A DNA stretch of 19,270 nucleotides from a virus (lineage: Duplodnaviria > Heunggongvirae > Uroviricota > Caudoviricetes): IMG/VR virus record IMGVR_UViG_2648501186_000011, positions 1-19,270 of that record. One strand, 5' to 3'. Positions 961 through 19,270 of the stretch are shown piece by piece (positions within the stretch are counted from its first letter, which is position 1; each line of letters opens with the position of its first letter). Under the pieces are notes generated by a model. The model had not been told where the DNA came from, searched no databases, and worked only from the letters and a program-made list of their open reading frames with translations. The translations under genes and the position numbers were made by a program.

Positions 961-974
961 CGAATCACCTCACT

Positions 975-1007
975 ATAAAACAGGAATAAGGGAGGCGTTA
1001 ACCTCCC
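975..1007 (-). terminator. Intrinsic terminator-like hairpin between the 277-aa gene and the fibre gene
   Basis: Palindrome GGGAGG-cgttaa-CCTCCC (plus 990-1007); on the minus-strand RNA it is followed by UUAUUCCUGUUUUAU. Confidence 0.5.
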
Positions 1008-1039
1008 AACGTTCATGTTTTATTTAGGTAGGAGAATCC

Positions 1040-1873: not shown

Positions 1874-1882
1874 TATTACCCC

Positions 1883-2305: not shown

Positions 2306-2579
2306 GTTTACCCCCTACTACAGTAATATAGGCTTCAATAAGGCCGGATCTGTCATCTTTAATATAATTAACCTTATTACGCACACCTTCGATAATGACA
2401 ATATCACCGGACTTTAGATCACCTCGTGCACAAATCAGATATTCACTTTCAGTAACACCACCATCCGGTGTATCAATATGATTAAACTCGTGATGTGCTT
2501 TGATGATTTTCCCGTCTGATTTTTGAAATTCTTCTGCAAATTTTAAAGCCCTGCGAATCTGGCTATCAGTTAATTTCAT
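2289..2579 (-). CDS. Hypothetical small structural protein (96 aa; start refined from the ORF-track 2624)
   Basis: The ORF-track start at 2624 has no SD and lies inside the terminator hairpin. The internal ATG at 2577-2579 (MKLTDSQIRR...) is preceded by AGGGGG with a 5-nt spacer. Confidence 0.55.
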   Translation of the reverse strand: MKLTDSQIRRALKFAEEFQKSDGKIIKAHHEFNHIDTPDGGVTESEYLICARGDLKSGDIVIIEGVRNKVNYIKDDRSGLIEAYITVVGGKHGKYE

Positions 2580-2609
2580 GAGTACCCCCTTTATGGAGTA
2601 TTTACATAC

Positions 2610-2635
2610 AAAAAAGCCCCGCACTAGGCAGGGCT
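2610..2635 (-). terminator. Intrinsic terminator downstream of the capsid gene
   Basis: Minus-strand RNA: AGCCCUGC-CUAGU-GCGGGGCU followed by UUUUUU (8-bp stem with one G.U). Sits about 110 nt after the 684-aa ORF stop, a typical place for a terminator after a highly expressed capsid gene. Confidence 0.65.
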
Positions 2636-2742
2636 AATTATCATTCTTTAGGCTTGCGGCCTCGTTTTGCTGTGGCTTTCGCCTTAACCGTCTGGGGTTC
2701 TTCCCCCAAATCGGGGGAAGGAATAGAAGGTTCTACAGGAGT

Positions 2743-4797: not shown

Positions 4798-4817
4798 AGA
4801 TCACCTTGAAAATTATT

Positions 4818-4834
4818 GGGGGCATTGCGCCCCC
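4818..4834 (-). other. Perfect hairpin between portal and capsid genes
   Basis: GGGGGC-attgc-GCCCCC palindrome in the 43-bp gap, immediately upstream of the capsid-gene SD. No U-tract, so a processing or stability element is more likely than a terminator. Confidence 0.4.
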
Positions 4835-4840
4835 GTTGGG

Positions 4841-6364: not shown

Positions 6365-6373
6365 TTTAAATCC

Positions 6374-6871
6374 TTATCGAGTTAAGCGTACTTTAATCGG
6401 TGTGATCGGTGAGTAATTCCCAGCTTTGCGGCGTTCTTGCTGAATCAGTTTTACGAGTTGTTTTTCGTAATCCTTTTTCAGTTGCTGCAATACCGCAAGG
6501 GATTCATAGGCGAAAGAATTGCCTTTGATCGTGAGAGAACTCAACGCGCTTTCATCATTGTCTAGACGTGCAAAAATAACTTGTTCGATTAAAGAAATGG
6601 TATTTCGAAGATATTCTTTCTTTGTTTCTTTAACGAAGACTGGCAATACGGTTAATTCCTGCATGGATACCAGTTCTTCATCAAGAGTAATAACAATGGT
6701 CATCTTCCCTTCTGGAAAGTCTAACGTTTTAATCTCGTGATTTTCCGGTGCATCATCGACCTGATAGACAATGCCTTTGCTATTACCTACCTGAATGGTT
6801 ACACCCTCTTCATTCGCCAGCGTGATTTTTTCGCCTTTACGAATTACTAAGGGAATTAGTTCTAAACTCAT
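6374..6871 (-). CDS. Hypothetical protein (165 aa) in the lambda gpW position
   Basis: ORF track; SD AAGGGG 5 nt upstream. Lies between terminase and portal where lambda has gpW, but is much longer; no confident similarity. Confidence 0.55.
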   Translation of the reverse strand: MSLELIPLVIRKGEKITLANEEGVTIQVGNSKGIVYQVDDAPENHEIKTLDFPEGKMTIVITLDEELVSMQELTVLPVFVKETKKEYLRNTISLIEQVIFARLDNDESALSSLTIKGNSFAYESLAVLQQLKKDYEKQLVKLIQQERRKAGNYSPITPIKVRLTR

Positions 6872-6920
6872 AATTACCCCTTATTTAATTGTTATTGGAT
6901 TAACAATATTTAGGAGTAAA

Positions 6921-6940
6921 GCCGCCCCGCAGGACGGCAT
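6921..6940 (-). other. Hairpin immediately after the terminase large subunit stop
   Basis: Minus-strand RNA GCCGUCC-UGCG-GGGCGGC (7-bp stem with one G.U) followed by UUUACUCCU. The GCCCCGCAGG core recurs at 12944-12959. Confidence 0.4.
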
Positions 6941-6944
6941 GTGA

Positions 6945-8870
6945 TTAGAAGTTATTAACCCAGCTATTACGACGCACAGGACGCGCCATAGGACGACGAT
7001 TAGGCTTATTGTGAGGGATTGGCTTAGTTTCCTGTTTTTGCTCGTCAGAATGCGATTTAGGAGCTTCTACGGCGGTTTCTGTTTCACGGTTCAGCTTTTC
7101 TTTCAGTGCAATGAGTTTATCCCATGACATTTTTGAAAGAACATAGCGAGAAGCAGCCAGACAATACACAAAACAGTCGAGGCATTCGTTCCTCTGCGAT
7201 CCGGGATTTTTCACCCAACGTGTTCCGGTAGCGGTGCGCTTGATGGACTCACTAAGAAGCTGATCGAGATAGTCATCAGGAACGGTGTGTGATATCTCTA
7301 AGCCAATATGCGGATTATCCTTCAAGTTGCGTGTTAATAGCTCACGAACAGCGGTTTTACCGACGTTTACACCCAACATAAGCAATTCGTGACCACCCGT
7401 GGTAGTTGGCTTAACCGGAATCAGTGGAGCGTTACCGGAGGAACTCCCTTTAATGGCATGAAGATTTTTCCATTTGGTGCAAATGCGGTAGCCAGCTTGT
7501 GTAAATTTACCGTTCGAAGTATCAAGGAAACTAGCCAGAACAGGAACACGCTGGCCTGATACCGTGGTAAACCTGCTTTTCTGGAAGTTGATTAGCTTAT
7601 CCCATACAGGTGATTCGTATCTCTCACAGTTATAATCTCGGAAGACACGGTGATCGAGGATGTAAATCTTATCTTTCGCGATGCCTAGCATAGTTGACTC
7701 GACGCGATCCAACTGCTGGTCCACGCCAAATGTGGCGAAAATAACATCATCTGGGATATTTTCTACACAAACTTCGGTTTTCAGTTGTTCCAGTTCGTTG
7801 ACTTCTACCGCTGTTTCTGCGTCATCGTACACAGTGCCGAGAACTGTATTGTAAAAACTTTGTAAATCAAAGGTTTGCCACGCTTGCGAGAAGTCAGAAA
7901 CACATGATTTGATAGAGCTAAAAGGTGAATACAGACGGCTGATCCAGAATCCTGCTACATCACTTTCACGGGTAGCTCTCCATTCTCCTTGTGCAACCGC
8001 TCTAATGCGATCCCCTTCTGACCAATCACTCTGGCAATGAGGGCAAACATAACGGGCGCTTTCAACACATGGCAGATTGCGACCATCCTGATTTTTCCAC
8101 TCGAACTTAACATTTTCCCACTCGATCACCTGGTGTTTCCCGCAATGCGGACAAGGAACAAAGAATTTACGCTGATCACTTGATAACCATTGTTGATTAA
8201 TCGGTCCCAGCTTAGTGGTCGGGGTACTGGAAACGATAATTCTTGCTTCATCCCCGAAAGTGGTTGCGCGGTTAGCCGCAAGTGCAATCGGATCGCCCTC
8301 TTCACTAGCACTGGCAGCATCACATTCATCAAGCAGAATCAACGGGCTGGTTTTTGAACGCAAGGTTGATGGGCTAGTAAGCGATACCATGTAAAGAAAA
8401 TGATTAGTCTTAAGCTGAATCTGGCTATTGTTATTAACAGCGTTGCGATCATTCTTGTCGGTGATTGCTTCGCGTAATGCCGGACATGCTTCAATGGCTG
8501 GTCGGATCTTCCCGCTTAGGTACTGAGCGGTTTCCTTCGTGGTTGCTTGGCCTATGATGATATTGCTGGGATCGTTAGCTATCTTATTGAATAATATACC
8601 ATTAAGGATGGAAGTTTTGCCGATCTGGGCACTTGTACAAAAAATGTACTTTTTCTTATTCTCTAAGAAAGGAGCATCAATCATGCCTTTCTGAAAGCTG
8701 GTTAATTTAATTTTAGCGCCAGCTTGTGGTCCATCCACTAGGATCATGTTTTCCTCGCACCATTCAGATGGTAAACGCTTAATTGGCGGTCGGATATGTT
8801 TTGATACTTCGTTAAAAATTCGCTTGAGTTTAAATTTATTTGAGAGTTTTTTCACCGTGATTATCCTCAT
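6945..8870 (-). CDS. Terminase large subunit, lambda gpA family (641 aa)
   Basis: Similar in length to lambda gpA as I recall it. Walker A-like [10 protein letters not shown], Walker B-like [11 protein letters not shown], a Cys pair [13 protein letters not shown], and a C-terminal [16 protein letters not shown] that resembles the lambda gpA C-terminus (from memory). No SD before the ATG, and an in-frame stop 18 nt upstream excludes a longer N-terminus. Confidence 0.85.
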
Positions 8871-8925
8871 ATCAACAATATGTTGTATTTAGATAAATAC
8901 GGGTATTAAGATTTAAGGGGGTTGT

Positions 8926-9531
8926 ATGCTAATTAATCAGCAACAAAGAGATGAATTAGAATTAGCATTTTCTTATTGTACCGGTCATGAATATCGTTTA
9001 CCAGTTAAGCACAAGCATTTAAAAACAGATATAACCACTTCTGGCTTTAGTCGTGATGAAGCGAAACAGATTTTAATCGAGTTGTATCGCGATCATGGGT
9101 ATACCGATATTCATAACTTCTTTAAGAAGCATCGCACATCACAGACAGAGTTCCAGAGAGTCCGTGAATGGTTTGATTTTGATATCAAGCGTTATTATCG
9201 AGTGGATGACGGTCCTATCTATCGGTTGCAGTGGACACCGATCAGGGAAGTGTTGAAACAGAAGAGATTGAATCATGCCATTACACGCTATCGTAACGAG
9301 GCTTTCAAGAAAGGCTATGGTGATACAAGGGAACTATTCGTTGAACTCGCTAACGTGAAATATAGCCACTATTACAACGATCCTACAGGGTTCTTCGAAG
9401 TGCTTCGCAAGGTTGATATTAGTCGGGGTACATATTATTCACGGCTGAGGAAGTACGGGATTAAGGCAGAGTTCTTTATGTCGGTTGACGACTCACCCAT
9501 GTTCAAGATAAAATCTAAGTCCTCTAAATAA
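8926..9531 (+). CDS. Hypothetical basic protein (201 aa) with C-terminal HTH-like motif
   Basis: ORF track; SD AAGGGGG 5 nt upstream. The C-terminal VDISRGTYYSRLRKYGIK resembles the recognition helix of the two small GRP-HTH proteins in this window. Confidence 0.6.
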   Translation: MLINQQQRDELELAFSYCTGHEYRLPVKHKHLKTDITTSGFSRDEAKQILIELYRDHGYTDIHNFFKKHRTSQTEFQRVREWFDFDIKRYYRVDDGPIYRLQWTPIREVLKQKRLNHAITRYRNEAFKKGYGDTRELFVELANVKYSHYYNDPTGFFEVLRKVDISRGTYYSRLRKYGIKAEFFMSVDDSPMFKIKSKSSK

Positions 9532-9566
9532 TATTGAGAAATCACTATTGTTTGGAGGAAACTACT

Positions 9567-9794
9567 ATGACTACTAAAGCTACTCGCGGTCGCCCTGCCC
9601 GTTTTACCCGTGAACAGATGGCTGATATTGCCTACGCTTACTATACAGCGGATCGCGGGAAGGAATCGAAAGAACAGATTCTTAGTGAACATGGGATTTC
9701 AGTAGCCCAATTCTATAAGAATATGAAGAAGTTAGACATTAAATTCTATGTTCAGATCGATGACGGTCAGATCGTAGAAGCAACAGGTTTTTGA
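9567..9794 (+). CDS. Small DNA-binding protein, GRP arm plus resolvase/Hin-type HTH (75 aa; start refined from 9534)
   Basis: ATG at 9567 has SD GGAGGA 7 nt upstream. The N-terminal TRGRPARFT is an AT-hook/Hin-like minor-groove arm and HGISVAQFYKNMKKL is a resolvase-type HTH. Paralogous to the 14077..14292 product. Confidence 0.6.
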   Translation: MTTKATRGRPARFTREQMADIAYAYYTADRGKESKEQILSEHGISVAQFYKNMKKLDIKFYVQIDDGQIVEATGF

Positions 9795-9809
9795 GTTTTG
9801 ATTCTCTTT

Positions 9810-9833
9810 GCCACTCTTCGGAGTGGCTTTTTT
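9810..9833 (+). terminator. Intrinsic terminator after the 8926-9794 module
   Basis: GCCACUC-UUCG-GAGUGGC followed by UUUUUU. Confidence 0.75.
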
Positions 9834-9877
9834 GTATATAAAACAATCTGAGCAAAACTGCGCACATCTCCATATAC

Positions 9878-9905
9878 AAAAAGCCCCACCATTACGGCAG
9901 GGCTT
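9878..9905 (-). terminator. Intrinsic terminator after the 214-aa gene
   Basis: Minus-strand RNA AGCCCUGCC-GUAAU-GGUGGGGCU followed by UUUUU. Closely related in sequence to the terminator at 2610-2635. Confidence 0.6.
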
Positions 9906-9909
9906 CTAA

Positions 9910-10554
9910 TCAGATTCCGAAGATAGCAAGGTCAATACAGTTTTCACTATCAAGCAAATCACCAGGACATTTCTTAGTCTTAGGCTTTCTAACACGCGTT
10001 TTAACGGCTTTAACCTTAATGGTCGTGGGGTTGGCTTCCTGTAACTTGATTTTCGCTCTCATGGCCTCGGCAGCAGCCATAATTTCTTCTTCTATTCTAT
10101 TTCTTTGTTCTTTCTCTCTTTGTGCTTGAAACAGTGCCAGCCTCATCCATTCTATCTTCTGGTGTTCTGGATCTGCATTAGCAAGAGCATCCTTCAAACG
10201 AAGATATTCAACCTTATCCGCATCACTCAAAGAATTATAGAAAGCAAGTTCTTTATTATTTCGTTGTTCTAGTTCCTCTTCCATACGGCGAATATCTTTG
10301 ACGATCATGTAAGCGATGTTAGCACTTAATCCCATCATGATAATCAACACGGATCGCTTTCCACCTCTACCTTCAAAGACATAATCACCATCGGTCTTAG
10401 TTGGCTTTTCTTTTAATGCATCCCAACATCTAAGCAATTCCTCTTCCGCCTTCTGATATGACACCTCACATACAACAGCAACCTCGCTTAAAAGCATAGA
10501 TTTAACGCTATCATCACGCATAGCACGGGTAATATCTTCAATAGTCAGATTCAT
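9910..10554 (-). CDS. Hypothetical protein (214 aa)
   Basis: ORF track; SD GAGGA 6 nt upstream. One moderately hydrophobic segment (SVLIIMMGLSANIAYMIV) and a charged coiled-coil-like C-terminal half. Confidence 0.6.
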   Translation of the reverse strand: MNLTIEDITRAMRDDSVKSMLLSEVAVVCEVSYQKAEEELLRCWDALKEKPTKTDGDYVFEGRGGKRSVLIIMMGLSANIAYMIVKDIRRMEEELEQRNNKELAFYNSLSDADKVEYLRLKDALANADPEHQKIEWMRLALFQAQREKEQRNRIEEEIMAAAEAMRAKIKLQEANPTTIKVKAVKTRVRKPKTKKCPGDLLDSENCIDLAIFGI

Positions 10555-10567
10555 AGTGTTCTATCCT

Positions 10568-10593
10568 CAATAAAAGCCCCATATTTCAGGGGC
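10568..10593 (-). terminator. Intergenic hairpin with U-tract between the Rha gene and the 214-aa gene
   Basis: Minus-strand RNA GCCCC-UGAAAUAU-GGGGC followed by UUUUAUUGAGGA, immediately before the SD of the next gene; more likely an attenuator than a full stop. Confidence 0.5.
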
Positions 10594-10607
10594 AAAATAA
10601 TAAAAAA

Positions 10608-11480
10608 TTAAATTCCAAAGTATTCCAGCGATCCGGCGTTCTTACGAATCAGTGCGGCAGTATTATTGACGATTGCACGAGCATTGTTAGGCTGCGGTAA
10701 TTTCAAAGTTGCTCGTTGTTCTTCTTCAATCAATCCCAATTTAACCAGCACAGGTAAACAGTCAGTTGTGAACTCAAGCTGACCATGTGCTGATTGTCGA
10801 GCGTACATGTAAGCAGGAGGAAGAACATCATAGCCGTTAGGCTTACCAGAAGCATCCAGACGACGCTCAATGTGTTTAGCCTCACATAACCCTTTCAGAA
10901 TGCGCTGTACCTTGCCAGAGCCTCGTTTTTCGCCCAATAAGCGGGTTAAGCTGTGTGCGTCAATGGCACGGCGAACATGGAGATCAACTAATTGTTGATT
11001 CTCGTGAAGCAATTGTTCTTTTTCTTCTTCAAGTTTAACCGCTTCGCGCATCCAGTCGAGCTTAGTCATCTTGCTTGCGTCTGGGAACGGATTAGCTTCT
11101 TTGTTTGCCAATTCTGTTAGTAAACGTGCGTTTTCCTCTTTCAGAATCTTCCATTCTTTAATTACACGATTACGAATCGGTGTGCTATATCCAGTGACAA
11201 GAGTCATGCAAAGTTCTTCGTTCAAATGGCATACCGGATCTTTAACAACAATACCTAAGCCATTGATTTTCTCCACAAGACCAAAATTGGACTCCTGCGG
11301 GATACCCAATTCTTTGTACATCACGCGAATGTCACGCAAAACATGTTTATGTTTCTTTCCGGTAAACTCGGCGATCTGGAAAGATGACATAGTTAATTCT
11401 TTTTCTACAGAGTCGTTTGCAGCAACCAGAGACACGGAAGCAGTTTTAACAGCAGTATTCATAGTAGTAACAGTATTCAT
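10608..11480 (-). CDS. Rha-family phage regulatory protein / antirepressor-like (290 aa)
   Basis: N-terminal FQIAEFTGKKHKHVLRDIRVMYKELGI matches the HxxVLRDI signature I associate with the Rha family. The start is ambiguous between M1 (11480, SD AAGGGG 10 nt upstream) and M7 because of an 18-bp tandem duplication. Confidence 0.65.
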   Translation of the reverse strand: MNTVTTMNTAVKTASVSLVAANDSVEKELTMSSFQIAEFTGKKHKHVLRDIRVMYKELGIPQESNFGLVEKINGLGIVVKDPVCHLNEELCMTLVTGYSTPIRNRVIKEWKILKEENARLLTELANKEANPFPDASKMTKLDWMREAVKLEEEKEQLLHENQQLVDLHVRRAIDAHSLTRLLGEKRGSGKVQRILKGLCEAKHIERRLDASGKPNGYDVLPPAYMYARQSAHGQLEFTTDCLPVLVKLGLIEEEQRATLKLPQPNNARAIVNNTAALIRKNAGSLEYFGI

Positions 11481-11522
11481 AGTAGTAATTCCCCTTTCGG
11501 TTTAGTGATATTGATCCTCCTA

Positions 11523-11554
11523 GTTCCGGCATCACCACCGGAACATTTTTATTT
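11523..11554 (+). terminator. Palindromic hairpin with plus-strand U-tract
   Basis: GTTCCGG-catcacca-CCGGAAC followed by ATTTTTATTT on the plus strand. Oriented to stop plus-strand (antisense) transcription entering the minus-strand operon. Confidence 0.45.
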
Positions 11555-11568
11555 ATGATAGAAATTTA

Positions 11569-11901
11569 TTACCAATCGATTTCTACTTGGTCTTCTTCAT
11601 AATAAGGAATCGCATATTCATAACGCCAATTTTCGATGATTTCACGTTCTTCATTAGTAAGAAGGTGATTGTTAACTGGAGTCGCATTGTGATTACCAGC
11701 TTCGAATTGCTCGCGAACTTCCAGCATTGCATGAATACCAGTTAAGGACATCAGATCAAACGGAACATGCATACTACGGGAGATAGTTTCACGGGATACG
11801 CCCCAATCATTTTCTACATGGCTAGGGGTTACAGAAACGGTTTTGCCGGAGATTTTAACAGTCCAGTCATACAGGGATTTAGTGATGGTAAATTCTTTCA
11901 T
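11569..11901 (-). CDS. Hypothetical protein (110 aa)
   Basis: ORF track; SD AGAGGA upstream; promoter-like sequence immediately upstream. Confidence 0.6.
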   Translation of the reverse strand: MKEFTITKSLYDWTVKISGKTVSVTPSHVENDWGVSRETISRSMHVPFDLMSLTGIHAMLEVREQFEAGNHNATPVNNHLLTNEEREIIENWRYEYAIPYYEEDQVEIDW

Positions 11902-11957
11902 GTTACATCCTCTTTACAAATCTAGGTCAAATAGGTTCAAAGTTGTCAAGTGCGATA

Positions 11958-11986
11958 ATCATAAAAAAGTTTGAAGATATTGTCAA
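11958..11986 (-). promoter_or_regulatory. Sigma70-like promoter: TTGACA, 17-nt spacer, TATGAT
   Basis: Read on the minus strand: -35 at plus 11981-11986, -10 at plus 11958-11963. The -35 overlaps the palindrome at 11980-12000. Confidence 0.6.
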
Positions 11987-12000
11987 ATACCCCTTGACAA
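11980..12000. promoter_or_regulatory. Operator-like palindrome TTGTCAA-N7-TTGACAA
   Basis: Perfect 7-bp inverted repeat with a 7-bp spacer. Further TTGTCAAG, GGTCAAA, GTTCAAA and GTTGACC half-site-like copies between 11923 and 12018. Confidence 0.5.
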
Positions 12001-12022
12001 GACGCCAAAGGGTTGACCTAAC

Positions 12023-12490
12023 TTACAGCATATCTAAGCCTTCATCGTAACCATAGAAGCCATTCTGAGAAGAGAAACAGATTGGAGCGTAGTCGTCGTC
12101 ATCTTCGTCTTGTTCATCGCGTTCTGGTGCTTTCTGAGCGGTTTCTTTGCCGTAGTTAAACATTGCTTCATCCAGTTCATAGACAGTAACGAAGCTACCC
12201 AGGTCAATGTCACCGGAACGGACTTCAAACGGAAGATCATCACGAACAATAATTGCTGGTAGATTCTGGTACTTTAAGCGTTCTTCATCGGTGAAGACGT
12301 TAACAACAATGGTCGGCTTCTTATTACGGCAAAACGCATACCATGCACTAGAGAAATGAGATTCATCAGAGTTGAAAAGAATGTTGTAACCACGTTCACG
12401 GAACATCTTCATTAACTTGTCATTGTGGAAGCTATCAGCATCAAAACCTAACAGGATGAAAGGAGTAGTGGTAGTCATTTTATGGTTCAT
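12023..12490 (-). CDS. Hypothetical acidic protein (155 aa)
   Basis: ORF track; SD AGAGGA 8 nt upstream. First gene leftward of the repeat hub. An inverted repeat AGTGAA-N9-TTCACT (12512-12532) lies in its leader. Confidence 0.6.
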   Translation of the reverse strand: MNHKMTTTTPFILLGFDADSFHNDKLMKMFRERGYNILFNSDESHFSSAWYAFCRNKKPTIVVNVFTDEERLKYQNLPAIIVRDDLPFEVRSGDIDLGSFVTVYELDEAMFNYGKETAQKAPERDEQDEDDDDYAPICFSSQNGFYGYDEGLDML

Positions 12491-12564
12491 AGTGGAAATC
12501 CTCTAAAAGAAAGTGAATCAAGTAAGTTCACTATTATTTATAAAGAGAAAATTCTTGTTATTAT

Positions 12565-12882
12565 GAAAAGAGTGATCTGGTAGAGTCCAAAACTGGTCTG
12601 TACTTGAAAGGTGATTGGATTCAGTCGGGCTAAAGCCCTCCTTCATAGATTTTGATTAAATCATCACCAAAACGAAGAAGTATCTTTAGAATATAAGAAT
12701 CTTTCTTTTGAAGAAATAATAATAATCAAACAAGATGGACGCTCCCTGAGCGTCTGCGAAGCATATCTAATTCCTTCCAGTATCATCAAAGTGATCTAGA
12801 ATCAGTTTGTAATCATTATCTTCAAAGTGATTGTAATATCTTTATCTTGAAAGTGATTATAACTACCTTCTTCAAAGTGATC
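12565..12882. repeat. Direct-repeat family (A/T)TCTTSAAAGTGAT, four good and two degenerate copies
   Basis: Cores at 12787-12795, 12823-12831, 12849-12857 and 12873-12881 spaced 24-36 bp; degenerate copies near 12565-12577 and 12603-12616. Confidence 0.7.
12738..12754. other. Perfect palindrome GACGCTC-cct-GAGCGTC
   Basis: 7-bp inverted repeat with a 3-nt spacer in non-coding DNA. Confidence 0.4.
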
Positions 12883-12943
12883 TTGAATCATCATGTAAAC
12901 CAGATTAAAATCCCTTCCTGAATGATTTCAAAACAGATTACTC

Positions 12944-12959
12944 GCGCCCCGCAGGGCGC
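12944..12959 (+). other. Hairpin GCGCCC-CGCA-GGGCGC followed by a T-rich stretch
   Basis: 6-bp stem then ATAATATTCTTTTCTTTT on the plus strand; terminator-like, sharing the GCCCCGCAGG core with 6921-6940. Confidence 0.4.
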
Positions 12960-13074
12960 ATAATATTCTTTTCTTTTATCTACAATCTCTTTCATACCAA
13001 CTCTTTACTATTAACTATTACATATTACATATGACACCCTTCTAAGCCTTGTCCTGTCTGGGTTTCCGTGATTT

Positions 13075-13166
13075 TTGTACATCCTTGTACATCGTAGTAC
13101 ATGTGTTGTACATCCTTGTACATCCTTGTACACGTCACGTACATAGATGTACATCCTTGTACATCT
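13075..13166. repeat. Helically phased array of nine TTGTACATCC-type repeats
   Basis: GTACA begins at 13077, 13087, 13097, 13108, 13118, 13128, 13139, 13149 and 13159, a 10-11 bp period, so every copy is on one face of the helix. Confidence 0.8.
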
Positions 13167-13249
13167 AGGTTAAAAACCAATCAAAAATAGCCATAAAATC
13201 ACCATTTTGAGGGTGTATTTGCTCAATATTTCATCGTGTTTTTGTGATT

Positions 13250-13322
13250 CTGTACAGCAAATCTGTGTCTTGTACACCTTGTACATCTAATACATGTCTT
13301 GTACACCTTGTACATCTAATAC
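13250..13322. repeat. Second TGTACA cluster with two ~28-bp direct repeats
   Basis: gtcttgtacaccttgtacatctaatac occurs twice (about 13267-13293 and 13296-13322). GTACA at 13252, 13272, 13281, 13301 and 13310. Confidence 0.75.
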
Positions 13323-13495
13323 CGGGGAATAGCCCCCCTAATACCGGGGGATTTGTGGATACTAATACCGGGGAAAAAAAACCTAATACCGGGGGATTTT
13401 TATGTGGATGAATGATGGCCTAATCCGGGGGATTCTCTTACAGGACGGTTATCATTTACCCCCTAATACCGGGGAAATTAACCTAATCCGGGGGA
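13316..13495. repeat. Seven iteron-like direct repeats CTAAT(A)CCGGGG(G)A with DnaA-box-like motifs
   Basis: Copies start at 13316, 13338, 13362, 13383, 13420, 13463 and 13483, mostly 20-24 bp apart. TGTGGATAc (13353-13361) and TGTGGATGA (13403-13411) resemble the DnaA box TGTGGATAA. An AT-rich stretch follows at 13540-13640. Confidence 0.75.
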
Positions 13496-13643
13496 TTTTT
13501 GCTTCCAAAACGGGGATATCGCGGGGAAACCCTTAAATTCATTCAAATATTTTGATAGAAAATTCTTGTATATTATTTAACCAAAAAATCATCAAAAATC
13601 GCTGTAGCTTAATGATTTAAAAGGAATTTTCAAAAGGTCACCG

Positions 13644-13652
13644 TGCTATAAT
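13644..13652 (+). promoter_or_regulatory. Possible extended -10 promoter element (TGcTATAAT)
   Basis: TATAAT at 13647-13652 with TG at 13644-13645; only a weak -35 (TTTTCA region). Confidence 0.35.
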
Positions 13653-13732
13653 AGGTTATAAAGGTTGATAATCATTATTCGCCATTTTCACACAAAAATT
13701 TTGATAGTCTTTTCTCGCTTAGGTCAAGGGTA

Positions 13733-13761
13733 TTGACATCTGTCAAGGATTATTTTATGCT
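13733..13761 (+). promoter_or_regulatory. Sigma70-like promoter TTGACA, 17-nt spacer, TATGCT, with overlapping palindrome
   Basis: -35 at 13733-13738, -10 at 13756-13761. The palindrome TTGACA-tc-TGTCAA (13733-13746) recalls the 11980-12000 operator-like site. Confidence 0.5.
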
Positions 13762-13942
13762 TTTTCTCGTTGGTAGGGGTTGAAATTTTCAAAACAATCC
13801 CCATATAGATGATAAGCAAGATTTTCTCGCTACTAAATACATGTGAGCGATGATTATGACTCACTGACCTGAAAAGCTGAAACAGCATAAAATTCTAAAA
13901 AATGCGGTTTTCAGTTTTTCAAAAAGGGGTACAGGAGTCAGA

Positions 13943-13984
13943 ATGATTAAAAAATCGCCAGATAATATTCTGTCTATAGCGTAA
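13943..13984 (+). other. 13-codon mini-ORF (MIKKSPDNILSIA) with a strong SD
   Basis: AGGAG (13932-13936) 6 nt before the ATG at 13943; stop at 13982-13984. It is followed about 35 nt later by the terminator hairpin at 14021-14041, a leader-peptide-like arrangement. Confidence 0.35.
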
Positions 13985-14020
13985 AACTAAGCGCATTACA
14001 GAATAATATAAATATCATCG

Positions 14021-14041
14021 AGAGCGGTTAACGCTCTTTTT
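14021..14041 (+). terminator. Intrinsic terminator/attenuator upstream of the first rightward gene
   Basis: AGAGCG-GUUAA-CGCUCU followed by UUUUU, 20 nt upstream of the SD for the 14077 gene. Confidence 0.6.
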
Positions 14042-14076
14042 AATAAGAAAGATTTGTCTCTTAAGGGGAAGAAACT

Positions 14077-14292
14077 ATGAAAAACTCAATCATGGGGCGT
14101 CCGGTTAAAATCACCGAAGAAAAATACAAAGAAATCCTGATTGCTTACCACTCACAAGTTAATGCAACGAATGCTGATCGTGATGCACTTCTGGCAAAAT
14201 ATGGAATTACTCGCCGGACGTTTTCAAGGCTAGCTCATCGTTACCCAAATGTGAAAGTCGTAACTAAAGTGGTGAATGTAGAAATAGCATAA
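14077..14292 (+). CDS. Small DNA-binding protein, GRP arm plus resolvase/Hin-type HTH (71 aa)
   Basis: SD AAGGGG 8 nt upstream. MGRPVKIT...LLAKYGITRRTFSRLAHRY is paralogous to the 9567..9794 product. Confidence 0.65.
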   Translation: MKNSIMGRPVKITEEKYKEILIAYHSQVNATNADRDALLAKYGITRRTFSRLAHRYPNVKVVTKVVNVEIA

Positions 14293-14327
14293 ATCGCTTA
14301 CTGAGAATTACATTATGAAACTTTTAA

Positions 14328-14363
14328 CCAATAAAAAAGCCCCCTTGCGGCAACAAGGAGGCT
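14328..14363 (-). terminator. Strong hairpin with U-tract, oriented for the minus strand, between two plus-strand genes
   Basis: Minus-strand RNA AGCCUCCUUG-UUGCCG-CAAGGGGGCU (10-bp stem with one G.U) followed by UUUUUUAUU. On the plus strand the A-tract precedes the hairpin, so it may work bidirectionally. Confidence 0.5.
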
Positions 14364-14396
14364 TGAAATGAAGATTTGATACGGAGATAAAAAGAA

Positions 14397-15512
14397 ATGT
14401 CTAACAAGAATAACACTTCAATTGTATTTATTAACTTCAAAAACGACGAAAGCATTCTGAGCAACAATGAACAGATCGTGATGAAAGATTGTGGTGAAAA
14501 TGTCACTACCGTTTTCAAAGAAACTGCAAACACTCTAACCGAACTGGTTGCTAAAGTTCGCGGATATGGTGCTGTTCGTAAAGCTGAGTTTGAGATGGTT
14601 CAAAACTATACCCGCTCTGTTACGGTTGGCGACAAGAAATATAACAAAAACACACATAAGCTGATCGCTAATGATGAAATCAAACTGGTACAGATTTGCA
14701 CTACCGACAAAAACGCTATTTTCTTGTTGGTTGTTCTTGAAAATGAAGCTGGTTTACGTCGCGGTGTTCTGCGTCACCGTTCCATGCGTAATGAAGCTGG
14801 TGTGATTGGTTCTAAAATCCATAACCGCGCATACACTTCTACTTCCAACTGGATCATTGCTGGCGAGAACGAAGGTAAAACAGGCGAGACTTTCAACATT
14901 GCTTTCTTCTCTGCTTTTGACGAAAAGAAACATGTTAAATGGAAACTGAATAATGAAGCCGTAGAAGCTCCTGTGCGCGATTCTGAGAAACAATCTGTTG
15001 AAATCGATGAATCCCACATCATGGCTATGATTCGCGGCGTAGAGAAGCGTTTACGTGATGAATTTAACGCTAAACTTGAAGCTAAAGACAAAGAGATCGC
15101 GGAACTGAAAGCACGTTTAGAAGCAGTAGAAATCAAGACTATTGACACTACTGAAAATCCTGTTTCTAAAGACGTTGTTGCTGATCTGCAATGCGAGATC
15201 CAGATCGCCAGCGACTTCCAGAAAGCAACCAACAAACTCAATGCAAAATTAGAGCGTCGTGATAATGGTCAGCGTCTGTCTGGTGATGATATTCAGGTTA
15301 TTCTGCGCGGTGATATGAAAGAGATTAATGCTAAGTTTGCACCGAAAGGTGTTTTTGCTAGCAAGATTAACGAAGCCCAGGTCGATGAATTGATGCACGC
15401 GTTAGAAGCAGACACCAACGAGACTGTTAAAGCCGCTAATGATGACGTTGCGGCATCTGCAATCGTTTCTGACGAATATTTGAAAGAATTAGATGCACTT
15501 TTGGCTATGTAA
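14397..15512 (+). CDS. Hypothetical protein A (371 aa): N-terminal globular domain plus C-terminal coiled-coil-like region
   Basis: ORF track; SD GGAG 10 nt upstream. The C-terminal half is rich in charged, heptad-like sequence (KLEAKDKEIAELKARLEAVE). No recognisable family. Confidence 0.7.
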   Translation: MSNKNNTSIVFINFKNDESILSNNEQIVMKDCGENVTTVFKETANTLTELVAKVRGYGAVRKAEFEMVQNYTRSVTVGDKKYNKNTHKLIANDEIKLVQICTTDKNAIFLLVVLENEAGLRRGVLRHRSMRNEAGVIGSKIHNRAYTSTSNWIIAGENEGKTGETFNIAFFSAFDEKKHVKWKLNNEAVEAPVRDSEKQSVEIDESHIMAMIRGVEKRLRDEFNAKLEAKDKEIAELKARLEAVEIKTIDTTENPVSKDVVADLQCEIQIASDFQKATNKLNAKLERRDNGQRLSGDDIQVILRGDMKEINAKFAPKGVFASKINEAQVDELMHALEADTNETVKAANDDVAASAIVSDEYLKELDALLAM

Positions 15513-15539
15513 TTTTAATTTTTAAGAGGAATAACGATT

Positions 15540-16631
15540 ATGAAGACTTACACCGACATTACCAACAAACAATTTTCTACCGCTGATCATTCGGTGGTTA
15601 GGCTTGCTATCTGGTCAGATATGAAATTTACCTTTAAATTTGGGTGTAAAGGATTTAAGATTAATTTTTCAGTTGACCACGTATTACCGGACCGCGCTGA
15701 TGACCTGATTAAGATTTTGCGTTATCGTGGCTATGGCCTAACCAATGGTGAGTTAACCATGATCTACAGCTTCGTTAATAAATCCGGTGATATGCTTGTT
15801 CGTAATATTACTGGTTATGAAATTAACGGTAAAAAAGGTGTTGCTATGACCGTTGTTGGTCGTGGTGGTATGGTTGCCGTTTATACATTCGGGTATAGCG
15901 CATTTTATAGCAAGAAAAATGATTACTATTATGGCAAGCGCACTAAACTAGATCATTACGGTCGTTATAGCCTGGGTGTTGCGGCTAAATATGAAAGTTG
16001 TATTGTTCTTAAAGATTCGATTCATGGTGAATTTGAAATCATGTCACAATACGACAAAACGCCTTATGACTACTACCGTGTAAAAGTTAAAGTACCGAAA
16101 GTGTTAGAGCCTCACGAATCTCATGTTGAATGCCGTGCTAAAACAATTAAAAAACTGCGTGATGAGAATGACCAGCTTTCTACGCGTCTAAGCAAGTTAA
16201 AAACCAAAGTACGAGATAAACGTAATCGTCACACTATCGAAGAACGTAAAGCTGCATACGATGAATACGTGGTTACTTTAAAGAAACGTGATGCTTTGCG
16301 TGAGTATTTTTGCAAAATCGATGCGATGTGCGCTGGTCGTTTGTACAGAGGAAAGAATGTGGCTGCGGTGAGTTTTGAGGAAATGGCAGAATTAACGCCT
16401 ATCAAGGAAGAGATTCAACTACCGAATGAAAAGGTTGCTTTGGTTAACGAAAAACGTAAACTAGTTGAAAAGGTGGCACAGGTGGATAAAGAGATTAAAA
16501 CTAGCGAAGGAATGGTTAAAGAGGCGTACATCGCTTTGCGTGATTCCTTAGAGATTCAAATCAAGCATATTGACCTTGAGATCTTGAAACTGTCCATGCC
16601 TAACCGCCCTACTCTACGTCTTGTTGCTTAA
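15540..16631 (+). CDS. Hypothetical protein B (363 aa): aromatic-rich N-terminal domain plus basic coiled-coil-like C-terminus
   Basis: ORF track; SD AAGAGGA upstream; 27 nt after gene A, so probably co-transcribed. Ends at the strong terminator at 16644-16676. Confidence 0.7.
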   Translation: MKTYTDITNKQFSTADHSVVRLAIWSDMKFTFKFGCKGFKINFSVDHVLPDRADDLIKILRYRGYGLTNGELTMIYSFVNKSGDMLVRNITGYEINGKKGVAMTVVGRGGMVAVYTFGYSAFYSKKNDYYYGKRTKLDHYGRYSLGVAAKYESCIVLKDSIHGEFEIMSQYDKTPYDYYRVKVKVPKVLEPHESHVECRAKTIKKLRDENDQLSTRLSKLKTKVRDKRNRHTIEERKAAYDEYVVTLKKRDALREYFCKIDAMCAGRLYRGKNVAAVSFEEMAELTPIKEEIQLPNEKVALVNEKRKLVEKVAQVDKEIKTSEGMVKEAYIALRDSLEIQIKHIDLEILKLSMPNRPTLRLVA

Positions 16632-16643
16632 GACAATAAAAAA

Positions 16644-16676
16644 GGGAGTCCCCGACGAAAGAGACTCCCTTTTGAT
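16644..16676 (+). terminator. Intrinsic terminator after the A/B operon
   Basis: GGGAGUC-(12-nt loop)-GACUCCC followed by UUUUGAUUU. Confidence 0.75.
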
Positions 16677-16747
16677 TTAGGATCAACACAACAAACAAAT
16701 TAAGGATTCTAAGGAAATTATAATGAACACTACCGTTACATTATTCT

Positions 16748-16782
16748 TTAAAGCCAGAAAATAACCGCCCCCTTCGGGGCGG
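16748..16782 (-). terminator. Intrinsic terminator downstream of the 92-aa membrane-protein gene
   Basis: Minus-strand RNA CCGCCCC-GAAG-GGGGCGG followed by UUAUUUUCUGGCUUU. Confidence 0.6.
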
Positions 16783-16939
16783 GAGGATTAACACTAATCT
16801 ATACTTGTTATGTTTTTATGATGTATAGACCATCGACTATGAAAACACTGTACTGTATGTGTTTTTATGGCTTTTAATCGGGAATCCTCAAAGAAGACCC
16901 CCTGTTAATAACCATAAGGAGAAAAGGCAGATTACATTA

Positions 16940-17218
16940 TTATTTAGTATCCTTGTTACTTAACACAAGAAACACCAGATAAAACAGAATCAGGATAAAG
17001 CACGTTTTACCAAATCCTTCGGGGTTAACATCAAACAGAATCATAGAGATTAACGCTACCACAAAACTAATCGCTTCGATGATAACTACGATAGCAGAAT
17101 ACCCGATAAACGCGCCTAAGAATAATTCGTACTTCTCTTTATTACTGTCAGAAAGACCGTAAGCGGTAATCATGGAAAGCGCGGTAATGATTACGAGATA
17201 AGTCAGAAAAATAGTCAT
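16940..17218 (-). CDS. Small membrane protein (92 aa, about three predicted TM segments)
   Basis: Three hydrophobic stretches (FLTYLVIITALSMITAYGL, LGAFIGYSAIVVIIEAISFVVALISMILF, CFILILFYLVFLVL) and a short polar C-terminus. SD AGAGG upstream. Holin-like or exclusion-protein-like in shape only. Confidence 0.6.
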   Translation of the reverse strand: MTIFLTYLVIITALSMITAYGLSDSNKEKYELFLGAFIGYSAIVVIIEAISFVVALISMILFDVNPEGFGKTCFILILFYLVFLVLSNKDTK

Positions 17219-17250
17219 TTGTATTTTGCCTCTAGTTAGACAAACATCCT

Positions 17251-17296
17251 CAAAAAATCAAATCAGAAAAATTGGGAGGGGAGCATCTAACTCCCC
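17251..17296 (-). terminator. Intrinsic terminator after the small terminase gene
   Basis: Minus-strand RNA GGGGAG-UUAGAUG-CUCCCC followed by a U-rich tract (AAUUUUUCUGAUUUGAUUUUUUG). Confidence 0.6.
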
Positions 17297-17348
17297 TTAG
17301 ACGTTGACCCGTTCAACATCTTTCTCACTATTATTTAGTATCTAATTT

Positions 17349-17906
17349 TTACGACACATCAAATTCATCGTCTTCTTGTTCTTCTTCCGGTTCTTCCTGC
17401 TTCACTTCCTCATCTTCTGAGTATTCATCGTAGGCATCAAGATCCGGTGAAATCATAATATCCCCGATCTCATTCAAACGAGCGGAAATGATATCCTTCA
17501 ATGTTTCTTTCAAAGTACGCTGATCCGTTGCAGCTTCCATAATTTTTAGAGTGTCTACCGTCGCCACCTGCATCATGGTCTGGCGTACATCACCACAAAA
17601 TCCGGCTAGAACTGTTTCTACATAACCTACAGGAATCAGATCATTTAGTTCGGTGCGGTTCTTAAGTTCGATGGCATCGGCCTCGCCTCTCGCCTTTCTT
17701 AATCGTTCTTGTTGGATCTGCGCTTGTACATCCACTTCCCTAAGTGGGTTAATGATGTTCTCAAGCACCCAGGCGATCGCTCTATCCCGTGGACAACGGC
17801 GGGTATTCGTATTATACGGAAGACCACGATCACGCCATTTCTGAACAGCCGGAAGGGAATACCCATACATTTTAGATAATTCGGTTAAAGTTACTTCTTG
17901 CGTCAT
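17349..17906 (-). CDS. Terminase small subunit, lambda Nu1 family (186 aa; start refined from 17981)
   Basis: ATG at 17904-17906 has SD AGAGGA 7 nt upstream; the ORF-track start has none. N-terminal HTH LTELSKMYGYSLPAVQKWRDRGLPY and central ERLRKARGEADAIELKN...VETVLAGFCGDV parallel lambda Nu1 as I recall it. Acidic C-terminal tail. Confidence 0.65.
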   Translation of the reverse strand: MTQEVTLTELSKMYGYSLPAVQKWRDRGLPYNTNTRRCPRDRAIAWVLENIINPLREVDVQAQIQQERLRKARGEADAIELKNRTELNDLIPVGYVETVLAGFCGDVRQTMMQVATVDTLKIMEAATDQRTLKETLKDIISARLNEIGDIMISPDLDAYDEYSEDEEVKQEEPEEEQEDDEFDVS

Positions 17907-18214
17907 GAAACTATCCTCTGAGCTAAAAATATGCGTAATTGTATTTAGACGAAATACGCAATATAACGGCCTATAACGCAATTTAAGAAAATCCCATGTG
18001 ACGGGGCGTTGAGAAGTGATTTAGCTCGTTGTAGGGCTTGTTTGGTGGCTTAACTAAACCAATTTGAAAAAGGCACAAGCGAGATTTAAACCGCGCCGGG
18101 CAAAACACGCCCTCTTTTGCCACCTATCACAGTACCTTTTTGTTGTCAAGTCTTTTTTATCGAATATTTTAAATTTTTTCATCTTTTTTCTCGTGCATTC
18201 ATCCGTTTTTTTCT

Positions 18215-18283
18215 CGGTCAAAATCAATGACTTGACCAGTTGACACTGATCCGGTCATCAATATAATCGGTCACACTTTGACC
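18215..18283. promoter_or_regulatory. Cluster of CGGTCA / TGACC half-sites around the lipoprotein promoter
   Basis: CGGTCA at 18215, 18252 and 18268; TTGACC at 18232 and 18278. Includes the palindrome GGTCA-cactt-TGACC (18269-18283) just downstream of the -10. Confidence 0.45.
18240..18267 (+). promoter_or_regulatory. Near-consensus sigma70 promoter TTGACA, 16-nt spacer, TATAAT
   Basis: -35 TTGACA at 18240-18245 and -10 TATAAT at 18262-18267, about 115 nt upstream of the lipoprotein start codon. Confidence 0.7.
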
Positions 18284-18383
18284 ATGTAAGGTGTGTTTCG
18301 GATGTGAGGATTAACGATAGATATTTACATAAATAAAGATGTGGTTAATCCATTCATCAATTTAATTCTCTGGAGGATATTCT

Positions 18384-18956
18384 ATGTTTAAAAAGATTGG
18401 TGTTATTGCTGCGGTTGTTCTGTTATCTGGTTGTGCGTCTATGGCTGAACTTGAAAAGCGTAGTGATGGTCTTTCGGCTTATCCTGGCATCAAGTATGAA
18501 CAGTTTCAGGGGTATGAGATTGTAAGTAGCTATACAACTACAAAGGCAACTCGCCCATATAACAAACTTAAAATGCAATCCTGTCTCTATGACACTGTGC
18601 GTAATGACATTATGGTGCATACTGACGCATTCAATGAGATTAAAGATTTAGAAGCTGGTGGTCGTATTGTTGAACGCGCCCGTTCTAATAGTGCTATTTT
18701 TAGTGGCAACTTCGAGCAAACTATTACCTTGCGTACTATTGTAGGTGACACTCCCTATACTCAATATGTGAAGTATAAAGGTATTGCTTTACCGTCCGGT
18801 GATAAGACACAGTTCACATTTACCGGATTGAGTGTTAAGCCTAAATCTGGTGGCGAGCATCCACTATGGTCACGTAAAACAAATAGCCCAGAAGAAAGTA
18901 TTAAAGAACTTGATAAGCTGGCGGATGAGATTGCCGATTGTCTTAATGATGAATAA
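18384..18956 (+). CDS. Lipoprotein (190 aa), candidate superinfection-exclusion factor
   Basis: Signal peptide with lipobox MFKKIGVIAAVVLLSG|C. SD GGAGGA 6 nt upstream. Exclusion role is by analogy only. Confidence 0.75.
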   Translation: MFKKIGVIAAVVLLSGCASMAELEKRSDGLSAYPGIKYEQFQGYEIVSSYTTTKATRPYNKLKMQSCLYDTVRNDIMVHTDAFNEIKDLEAGGRIVERARSNSAIFSGNFEQTITLRTIVGDTPYTQYVKYKGIALPSGDKTQFTFTGLSVKPKSGGEHPLWSRKTNSPEESIKELDKLADEIADCLNDE

Positions 18957-18973
18957 AGAATAACTGATTATAT

Positions 18974-18999
18974 AGCCTCGCTAAATGCGGGGCTTTTTT
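18974..18999 (+). terminator. Intrinsic terminator after the lipoprotein gene
   Basis: AGCCUCGC-UAAAU-GCGGGGCU (one G.U) followed by UUUUUU. Confidence 0.75.
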
Positions 19000-19039
19000 G
19001 TGTCTAAATACCATCAAGTTAATTGATGAGGAACACGAC

Positions 19040-19270
19040 ATGACCAAAGAAGAATTTTTGAAGCTGTCCGTTAAAGAGCAGAAGTCACTGGTTAATGACA
19101 TGCTTAATGAGCGTGGCTGGAAGGTGGTTGAAACAGAAGAGTATGGAACTGATTGGCATCAACGGATCATGATCATCAATACTGGTGGTGATGAATGGCG
19201 TGATTGGTGTCTTCGTACTGTTACCCCGCTTTCCCTTGTTACTGGCGTTGGCTTTCTGGAAAGAGAGTAA
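19040..19270 (+). CDS. Hypothetical protein (76 aa; start refined from 18998)
   Basis: ATG at 19040 has SD GAGGAA 6 nt upstream; the ORF-track start overlaps the preceding terminator. Stop is the last codon of the window. Confidence 0.5.
   Translation: MTKEEFLKLSVKEQKSLVNDMLNERGWKVVETEEYGTDWHQRIMIINTGGDEWRDWCLRTVTPLSLVTGVGFLERE

Follow-up and report, generated by a model that had tools for sequence, protein, structure and literature searches.

A repeat-array and two-gene module of an enterobacterial prophage: a possible replication origin with a predicted repeat-binding protein and an accessory protein bearing an SspB-like tail

The locus and its two genes

The subject of this work is a repeat-rich module in the window, the whole stretch of 19,270 nucleotides analyzed here (positions 1 to 19,270 of the Caudoviricetes record IMGVR_UViG_2648501186_000011). 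The module comprises, in order, direct-repeat arrays, AT-rich DNA, a conserved promoter with its leader, a small helix-turn-helix (HTH) gene and two larger genes, which we call gene 1 and gene 2. Gene 1 (14397-15512, + strand) encodes 371 amino acids and is the predicted repeat-binding specificity protein of the module, and gene 2 (15540-16631, + strand) encodes an accessory protein of 363 amino acids. The genes are separated by 27 bp, and each start codon is preceded at about 10 nt by a motif resembling a Shine-Dalgarno sequence, GGAG for gene 1 and AGAGG for gene 2. The operon ends at a bidirectional intrinsic terminator (16640-16673), a hairpin with a 14-bp stem followed by a U run, with folding energies of -16.7 kcal/mol (z -3.2) on the + strand and -21 kcal/mol (z -4.0) on the - strand. 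The reading frames, the Shine-Dalgarno-like motifs and this hairpin confirm the two-gene operon, with its own ribosome-binding signals and strong terminator, described in a first-pass annotation made from the letters alone, and its placement of the pair between repeat-rich, "replication-like" DNA and terS is also correct. Moreover, both genes are real, because intact syntenic homologues with 20-100% identity are present in about 30 independent loci. These related loci (named with an L and a number) were collected from RefSeq E. coli genomes, from Logan and NCBI assemblies, and from IMG/VR, where the conserved neighbor p110 served as the anchor for retrieval.

The same annotation had recognized no family for either protein, and the searches agree with it. 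No family above noise was found for gene 1 or gene 2 in Pfam, PHROGs, PADLOC or NCBIfam, the sole PADLOC hit being the coiled-coil protein LmuC below threshold (E=0.028). Against the PDB sequences no family was obtained either, designed coiled coils alone aligning, at residues 214-253 of gene 1, and no match to the fold library was detected. Neither protein carries a nucleoside triphosphatase (NTPase) domain or a conserved Walker motif. A tblastn search of 50,697 phages and 72,556 plasmids found nothing, and in a big protein database only a handful of relatives, all enterobacterial, was retrieved. A profile of the gene 1 N-domain, run exhaustively with HMMER over 1.84 billion representative proteins, gave five genuine clusters, none of them with a Pfam domain, and a fused profile of both genes added nothing new from the big protein database, its candidates being swamped by coiled-coil words. 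Gene 1 and gene 2 are, then, orphan families in a prophage family without a cultured relative.

Each protein consists of an N-terminal half of about 190 residues and, after it, a charged, helical half with few Gly, Pro or aromatic residues. A reliable model of the gene 2 N-domain shows a β-rich fold (b-b-b-a-a-b6); heptad-like segments follow at residues 192-239 and 301-328, and a P/K/E-rich linker precedes the C-terminal tail. In gene 1, a borderline heptad-like segment is present at residues ~210-250; the linker that follows it is acidic and variable, and the C-terminus is formed by an acidic amphipathic peptide. The matching architecture of the pair claimed previously therefore holds for the two halves and fails for the long coiled coil, since the heptad-like stretches cover only 30-50 residues each. 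An origin of this likeness by duplication is rejected, as the two families are not homologous (hhalign probability 0.3%).

Repeat arrays and their flanking DNA

The 1.5 kb upstream of the HTH gene are non-coding and dense in direct repeats. Array 1 (13075-13170, + strand) contains about nine tandem TTGTACAY-type units, the type-A iterons, with a period of 10-11 bp. After an AT-rich spacer of about 80 bp, array 2 (13251-13316, + strand) adds about five TGTACA-type units. In the whole window, KTGTACAY occurs 13 times against 1.9 expected, and ten of these copies lie at 13075-13315, all of them on the + strand. The arrays are located ~1.1-1.3 kb upstream of the gene 1 start, and their tandem 10-11 bp period and two clusters around an AT-rich spacer correspond to an origin-like arrangement.

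The DNA on both sides is easily melted. The left flank (12960-13039) has a GC content of 0.25 and is among the three most meltable 80-bp segments of the 19 kb (z=3.0). On the right, an AT-rich candidate unwinding element (13541-13620), located within a block of DNA that is kept between module types, has a GC content of 0.20 (z=3.0). As a whole, 12489-13620 contains five of the eight most meltable 80-bp segments of the window, two of which abut the arrays.

A second repeat family, TAATMCSGGGG (13317-13494, + strand), has seven copies against 0.01 expected, spaced by ~22 bp, and shares a CGGGGA core with the iterons of the type-B relatives described below. In L001, whose gene 1 is identical to that of the window, only two copies remain through a 164-bp deletion. 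This family may have been left behind when module types recombined. In addition, the AT-rich spacer that separates the arrays from the leftward p155 operon contains three short GC-rich stem-loops (12623-12640, 12738-12754 and 12944-12960), one of them scoring as a leftward terminator; among them, TCAAAGTGAT-like repeats (12783-12881) are partly conserved across module types.

Promoter, leader and small HTH gene

Transcription of the operon would start from a conserved, near-consensus sigma-70 promoter (13733-13761, + strand) that matches the consensus at 10 of 12 positions, and whose -35 element, TTGACA, lies within the perfect palindrome TTGACAtcTGTCAA. The aligned loci keep this promoter, although L004 and L011 do so more loosely. 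Its palindrome is degenerate in these two and conserved in most module types, a conservation that suggests an operator for a conserved regulator. A second conserved element, resembling an extended -10 (TGcTATAAT, 13640-13652), is observed ~90 bp upstream of the promoter.

The leader of ~300 nt ends, just 5' of the HTH gene, with an attenuator- or terminator-like hairpin and U run (14020-14038, + strand; -10.6 kcal/mol, z -2.6) that has an equivalent in every related locus. The HTH gene itself (14077-14292, + strand), the first of the operon, encodes 71 residues with weak hits to HTH_23 and HTH_28. Between it and gene 1, a conserved hairpin (14337-14364) acts in sequence terms as a leftward terminator and buries a perfect AAGGAGG (14355-14361), and on its 3' side the window has a three-codon mini-open reading frame, ATG AAG ATT TGA (14368-14379). 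The leader hairpin, the sequestered AAGGAGG and the mini-open reading frame may provide attenuation or translational control.

In most relatives, the leader also contains three palindromes of the form CTG-N10-CAG that resemble LexA boxes, matching 13-15 of 20 consensus positions. They are found in type B and in the L004/L017, L005, L013, L015 and L016 types, for example at L003:7120-7242, L002:20977-21099 and L016:4194-4316. Judged by these boxes, the operon looks directly SOS-controlled in most relatives and wired differently in the window, and their presence suggests that the operon is early and induced, and not one that maintains lysogeny.

Gene 1 follows the repeats while the rest of the module is reshuffled

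All of the ~30 loci share one layout, with repeats, the AT-rich and promoter block, the HTH gene, the hairpin, gene 1, gene 2 if present, and the terminator. Between types, the identity of the module proteins is only 15-35%. A comparison of the window with L002 illustrates how sharply this variation is confined: the flanking proteins (terS, a 92-residue membrane protein, a lipoprotein, p110, Rha, p214, terL, the capsid protein and others) are 84-100% identical, whereas the HTH protein and gene 1 show no match, gene 2 retains 29% identity and the repeat region is replaced. Within the module, the non-coding blocks behave differently from the genes. The AT-rich and promoter block (13502-13878) is 90-94% identical where the genes have diverged to ~25%, and L002 and L003 share the hairpin block (14300-14364) at 100% identity despite the unrelated genes at its sides.

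Eight gene 1 types and eight repeat types can be distinguished, and in all ~30 loci the first tracks the second. Type A, shared by the window, L001 and L009, has TTGTACA repeats, with the same array motif and the same gene 1 type in the three cases; type B has ACGGGGA, the L004/L017 type GTGTAGG, L005 GGAATCTTGGGG, L011 ACTAGWAA, L014 ATCGYAAAC, the L016 type AGGGGCAA and L013 TTATAGGAC.

The other genes are not tied to the repeats in this way. The HTH protein falls into two sequence classes that are reshuffled independently of the repeat type, and a single HTH variant is paired with four different gene 1/repeat types. The recombinant L009 has TGTACA repeats and a type-A gene 1 N-domain (73% identity), and differs in the gene 2 N-domain (41%) and in the HTH protein (35%). 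In L013, a type-B-like gene 2 (73%) and a window-class HTH protein (83%) accompany a novel gene 1 and novel repeats, and L007 joins a window-type p155 to a type-B module. Given these combinations, the repeat binder cannot be the HTH protein, gene 2 or p155. Nor can it be TerS, whose identity between the window and L002 is 97% although their repeats are completely different; the same comparison discards the arrays as terminase-binding (cos/pac) sites.

Because the gene 1 type follows the repeats while the HTH gene, gene 2 and the flanks are reshuffled, we predict that gene 1 is the specificity protein that binds the tandem repeats, a conclusion for which the covariation is strong, albeit indirect, evidence. 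The presence of diverged alleles of a single set of genes at one position, together with this covariation, also argues for an allelic specificity module and not for a cargo hotspot. In the first-pass annotation, the pair had been assigned to accessory DNA of the kind that holds defense and anti-defense cargo; this is not supported, since every relative carries alleles of the same genes, gene 1 covaries with the repeats and PADLOC gives no match.

The C-terminal tail of gene 2 resembles the ClpX-docking peptide of SspB

The last eight residues of gene 2, RPTLRLVA (codons at 16605-16628, + strand), form a putative ClpX-docking motif similar to the XB peptide of SspB, with an ssrA-like LVA end. 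This terminus is kept in every gene 2, in homologues otherwise only 20-40% identical, with the variants KPVLRLVA, KHTLRIVA and K[PL]TLRIVA and with an invariant Leu-Arg-x-Val core in all forms. Synonymous differences between loci are observed at almost every codon of the tail, which indicates selection on the peptide and not merely shared flanking DNA. The segments immediately before it are P/K/E-rich, variable in length and non-conserved, as in LPKPEIKHEIKKA, TKPEAKP or SMPN.

E. coli SspB ends in GRPALRVVK (PDB code: 8ET3), and in 80 Enterobacteriaceae species (the only group returned by our genome-wide scan for SspB) the tail is GRP[AS]LRVVK. When NRPTLRLVA of gene 2 is set against GRPALRVVK, five residues are identical and two are conservative over the eight or nine compared. 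The last ten residues of SspB correspond to the XB peptide, which binds the zinc-binding domain at the N-terminus of ClpX (PMC3983244, PMC9963277, PMC12373786), and the consensus derived from peptide arrays for this domain is L-K-x-h (PMC7226468). The LRLV of gene 2 fits this consensus, read as L-K/R-x-h. Because its conserved tail matches the XB peptide, we infer that gene 2 would be tethered to the host ClpX; given the LVA end, it may also be a ClpXP substrate itself. The earlier suggestion of host takeover survives loosely in this sense, as the C-terminus appears to mimic a host docking tail, although the locus is not a hotspot for cargo genes.

Gene 2 is not universal. It is absent from two independent gene 1 lineages, L011/L014 and the L016 type, and since the latter is the commonest in IMG/VR, it would not be needed for the core function of the module. 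In the L004/L017 type, gene 2 is an 80-residue mini form composed of a heptad helix, a linker and a TLRIVA tail, present also in intact-looking prophages (L004:8565-8807, L017:4910-5152, and L018, L021, L033 and L034) and always accompanied by the gene 1 type with GTGTAGG repeats. The mini form is the minimal conserved unit of gene 2, whose conserved core is made up of a helix and the invariant C-terminal peptide, joined by a flexible P/K/E-rich linker.

The end of gene 1 varies with the presence of gene 2. In the five types that have gene 2, endings of the ssrA-like, hydrophobic-Ala-Ala kind (FAA, LAA, YAA, KAA and EAA) are seen in gene 1, and in those lacking it the ends are IAL, FGQ and YCQ. 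That gene 1 is the cargo of gene 2 through an ssrA-like end is suggestive only.

Prophage context and distribution

The window is part of a prophage of ~40 kb whose hosts are E. coli, Shigella and Salmonella, and which is temperate and siphophage-like. Among 5,426 complete E. coli genomes, 63 (~1%) carry this prophage family; the copies in complete genomes occupy 65 places, all of them chromosomal and none on plasmids. Its closest cultured phage has a terL identity of just 46%, no description of the family was found in the literature, and megablast against phage and plasmid collections gave no match. In complete E. coli chromosomes, elements related at the locus insert in hicB or ycdX, which are split upon insertion, as recorded for L002/L006, L003, L005 and L015-L017.

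A single member, L002/L006 (NZ_CM177021.1, 2352093-2392942), was inspected end to end. Its far end carries a large serine recombinase, and the element also encodes a UvsW-like helicase, tail genes like those of gene transfer agents, a lambda-type portal and gpA terminase, and a protease-capsid fusion. The UvsW-like helicase adjoins proteins with CapR and T5orf172/MUG113 domains. In the rest of the ~40 kb prophage, no recognizable initiator, primase or helicase loader was found, the UvsW-like helicase being the only related protein.

Several other features of the window were recorded. On the - strand, 2743-4797 encodes a 684-residue fusion of an S78 prohead protease, a highly acidic low-complexity linker of ~130 residues and an HK97-type major capsid protein, and no separate scaffold gene was seen. 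The packaging genes terL (gpA-like, 6945-8870) and terS (Nu1-like, 17349-17981) are on the same strand with 8.5 kb between them, an unusual separation for lambda-type packaging genes; the interval holds the Rha gene, several unknown genes and the entire repeat/HTH/gene 1/gene 2 module. The AT-rich gap of 400 bp upstream of terS (~17982-18383) is a candidate for the cos region. Scanning the window for Rfam families and tRNAs gave no hit.

A possible origin with its initiator or organizer

The reading that we favor, which we hold tentatively and a little short of an even chance, is that the array and gene 1 constitute a phage replication origin with its initiator or organizer, gene 2 being an optional partner that would mimic the SspB tail. 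Here, gene 1 would bind the TTGTACAY arrays ~1.1-1.3 kb upstream of its own start and oligomerize on them through its heptad segment, and the resulting origin and initiator or organizer would be switched on from the early promoter. Gene 2, for its part, would be tethered to ClpX and couple the gene 1 nucleoprotein complex, or itself, to remodeling or degradation by ClpX(P), with either delivery or shielding as the putative outcome. This reading is preferred because meltable DNA abuts the arrays, a near-consensus promoter adjoins them, most relatives have LexA-like boxes and no other recognizable initiator is encoded by the prophage.

However, several observations weigh against this reading. 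Concerning the origin, a high AT content is general to intergenic DNA, the GC skew reaches its minimum (~13 kb) just where gene orientation switches, and DnaA boxes are not enriched, the arrays holding just two 8-of-9 matches. The LexA-like boxes are absent from the leader of the window itself (13765-14076), and likewise from L001, L009, L011 and L014. Neither protein resembles known Rep, O or P proteins or the SspB fold in Pfam, PHROGs, NCBIfam or PDB, and the gene 1 N-domain is β-rich only in a model of such low confidence (AlphaFold2, predicted local distance difference test score of 38) that it gives no structure. Concerning gene 2, its absence from the commonest lineage has to be accommodated. 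Its tail departs from SspB at the last residue (Ala for Lys) and at V163 (Leu), and its LVA end would also function as a simple degron of the ssrA kind. Moreover, the XB-like C-terminus proposed for RssB does not bind ClpX (PMC7226468). As for the end of gene 1, that of the window is LAM, and since the Ala-Ala codons (GCA/GCG GCT TAA) are located within a conserved DNA junction that holds the ribosome-binding site of gene 2, the correlation between the AA ending and gene 2 may be an effect at the nucleotide level.

A more specific version can be formulated, which we regard as doubtful. In this version, gene 1 and gene 2 would form a private tag-and-adaptor system: the acidic helix plus AA end of gene 1 would be the tag, the gene 2 helix would bind gene 1 while the XB mimic engages ClpX, and the unfoldase would remodel or destroy the origin complex on cue.

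Other explanations of the module

In our estimate, the alternatives for the module as a whole rank with an operator array and its regulator at the top, then an accessory pair for host takeover or anti-defense, and finally a parC-like centromere. The regulatory explanation, which we consider fairly improbable, would make gene 1 a repressor or activator and the arrays the operators of divergent early and late operons, with gene 2 coupling the inactivation of gene 1 to ClpXP, and module exchange would amount to heteroimmunity. The Mu repressor is the model for this arrangement, as it has a DNA-binding domain, a leucine-zipper region and a C-terminus that controls ClpXP. Immunity regions are typically swapped in this way between prophages that are nearly identical elsewhere, no recognizable CI-type repressor is found in the prophage, and part of the repeat copies of L009 and L014 lie beside the operon promoter or after it. 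Nonetheless, in the window 400-700 bp separate the arrays from the rightward promoter and >500 bp from its leftward counterpart, with hairpins and terminators in between, and runs of at least ten 11-bp repeats in the same orientation are unusual for operators. Being conserved across module types, the promoter and its palindrome cannot confer type-specific control. Also, a strong promoter, with LexA-like boxes in the relatives, suits induced early genes better than a maintenance repressor.

The accessory explanation would have the gene 2 tail occupy the ClpX N-domains, or redirect ClpXP to a protein of the host or of a rival phage, with gene 1 as an effector unrelated to the repeats. Its attraction is the XB-like tail itself in an operon that is early or SOS-linked in relatives. 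In addition, XB peptides block the degradation that depends on the ClpX N-domain, including that of lambda O, FtsZ and sigma-S (PMC3983244, PMC7226468), and the existence of a true SspB homologue on a phage, pf16 gp18 (PMC5587285), gives it a precedent. Yet it does not account for gene 1 covarying strictly with the repeats, nor for a locus that always holds alleles of the same genes in place of varied cargo. PADLOC gives no match, and it is gene 2 that the commonest lineage lacks, gene 1 being retained throughout. For these two proteins we judge such a role improbable.

A centromere-like or DNA-positioning module is the explanation to which we give least weight, and it appears very improbable. 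In this case, gene 1 would coat the arrays, gene 2 would be its partner, and the complex would organize or segregate the phage DNA. The plasmid systems ParR-parC of R1 and StbA-stbDRs of R388 are built on tandem direct repeats of ~11 bp, and KfrA of RK2 is a coiled-coil protein; the operon is preceded by two clusters of tandem ~11-bp direct repeats, similar to R1 parC and R388 stbDRs, and both proteins have heptad segments. On the other side, the 65 places in complete genomes are all chromosomal and none of the 72,556 plasmids contains a homologue, no NTPase of the ParA, ParM or TubZ type and no conserved Walker motif is present, and gene 1 is not a small centromere binder of the ribbon-helix-helix or HTH kind.

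A separate question is whether the gene 2 tail is a ligand of the ClpX N-domain at all. It could instead be a simple LVA degron, or dock to the beta clamp (xLxLxx-COOH), to DnaK or to a conserved phage protein, and we consider this unlikely. LVA is a known and efficient variant of the ssrA tag, and the hydrophobic core with flanking basic residues fits DnaK-type and clamp-type motifs loosely. The precedent of RssB shows, in addition, that XB-like motifs can mislead (PMC7226468). However, eight residues are conserved and not three, and the agreement with the host XB peptide (five of eight identical plus two conservative) is seen at an identical terminal position, which a flexible linker precedes, with LRLV conforming to the peptide-array consensus L-K/R-x-h (PMC7226468).

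Implications

If the origin reading is true, gene 1 would represent a new family of initiators or organizers with a natural panel of eight protein/repeat specificity pairs, and the virus would have copied the docking peptide of a host adaptor onto an unrelated scaffold to reach ClpX. Such mimicry bears on the timing of phage replication and induction, and on the ClpXP-based degraders that already use the XB peptide. The tag-and-adaptor version, should it hold, would add a new, SspB-independent viral coupling of replication licensing to ClpXP and the first natural XB mimic on an unrelated scaffold.

Comparison with known systems

Clp unfoldases handle several replication and transposition proteins, namely lambda O (ClpXP), P1 RepA (ClpA), RK2 TrfA (ClpX) and MuA (ClpX). 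Like these, gene 1 would be a sequence-specific protein matched to a nearby direct-repeat array beside AT-rich DNA, exchanged together with its repeats between relatives and with a putative link to the host ClpX. However, gene 1 is not homologous to lambda O, Rep_3 or other initiator families. Moreover, unlike in iteron-type initiators, the tandem units of 10-11 bp lie ~1.1-1.3 kb upstream and not inside or directly beside the gene, no helicase loader is present, and the link to ClpX would be made through a separate, optional protein.

The Rep-ori systems of Staphylococcus aureus pathogenicity islands (SaPI) and other phage-inducible chromosomal islands offer another parallel, as two sets of short iterons flank an AT-rich region and the specificity of the initiator co-varies with the iterons. 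The module shares with them the iteron sets around AT-rich DNA and the covariation with the repeat sequence. SaPI Rep is, nonetheless, a helicase, whereas gene 1 has no NTPase motif and is unrelated to it in sequence. Compared with the ParR, StbA and KfrA systems, gene 1 is large, its N-domain is β-rich at low model confidence, and there is no partner NTPase.

For gene 2, the closest comparison is SspB itself, the ClpX tethering adaptor of E. coli with the XB tail GGRPALRVVK (PDB codes: 8ET3 and 2DS8). Both proteins place a docking-type peptide at the extreme C-terminus, on a flexible and poorly conserved leash, after an oligomerizing or cargo-binding part. However, gene 2 has no sequence or fold similarity to SspB's substrate-binding domain (Pfam SspB), it ends in Ala instead of Lys, and any dimerization would occur by coiled coil. 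Our literature search found no phage XB mimic save a true SspB homologue, gp18 of the Pseudomonas phage pf16 (PMC5587285). Like pf16 gp18, gene 2 is a phage protein predicted to engage the adaptor pathway of the host ClpXP. The difference is that gp18 is a true, host-acquired homologue, whereas gene 2 shares only the terminal peptide with SspB, which points to mimicry or convergence.

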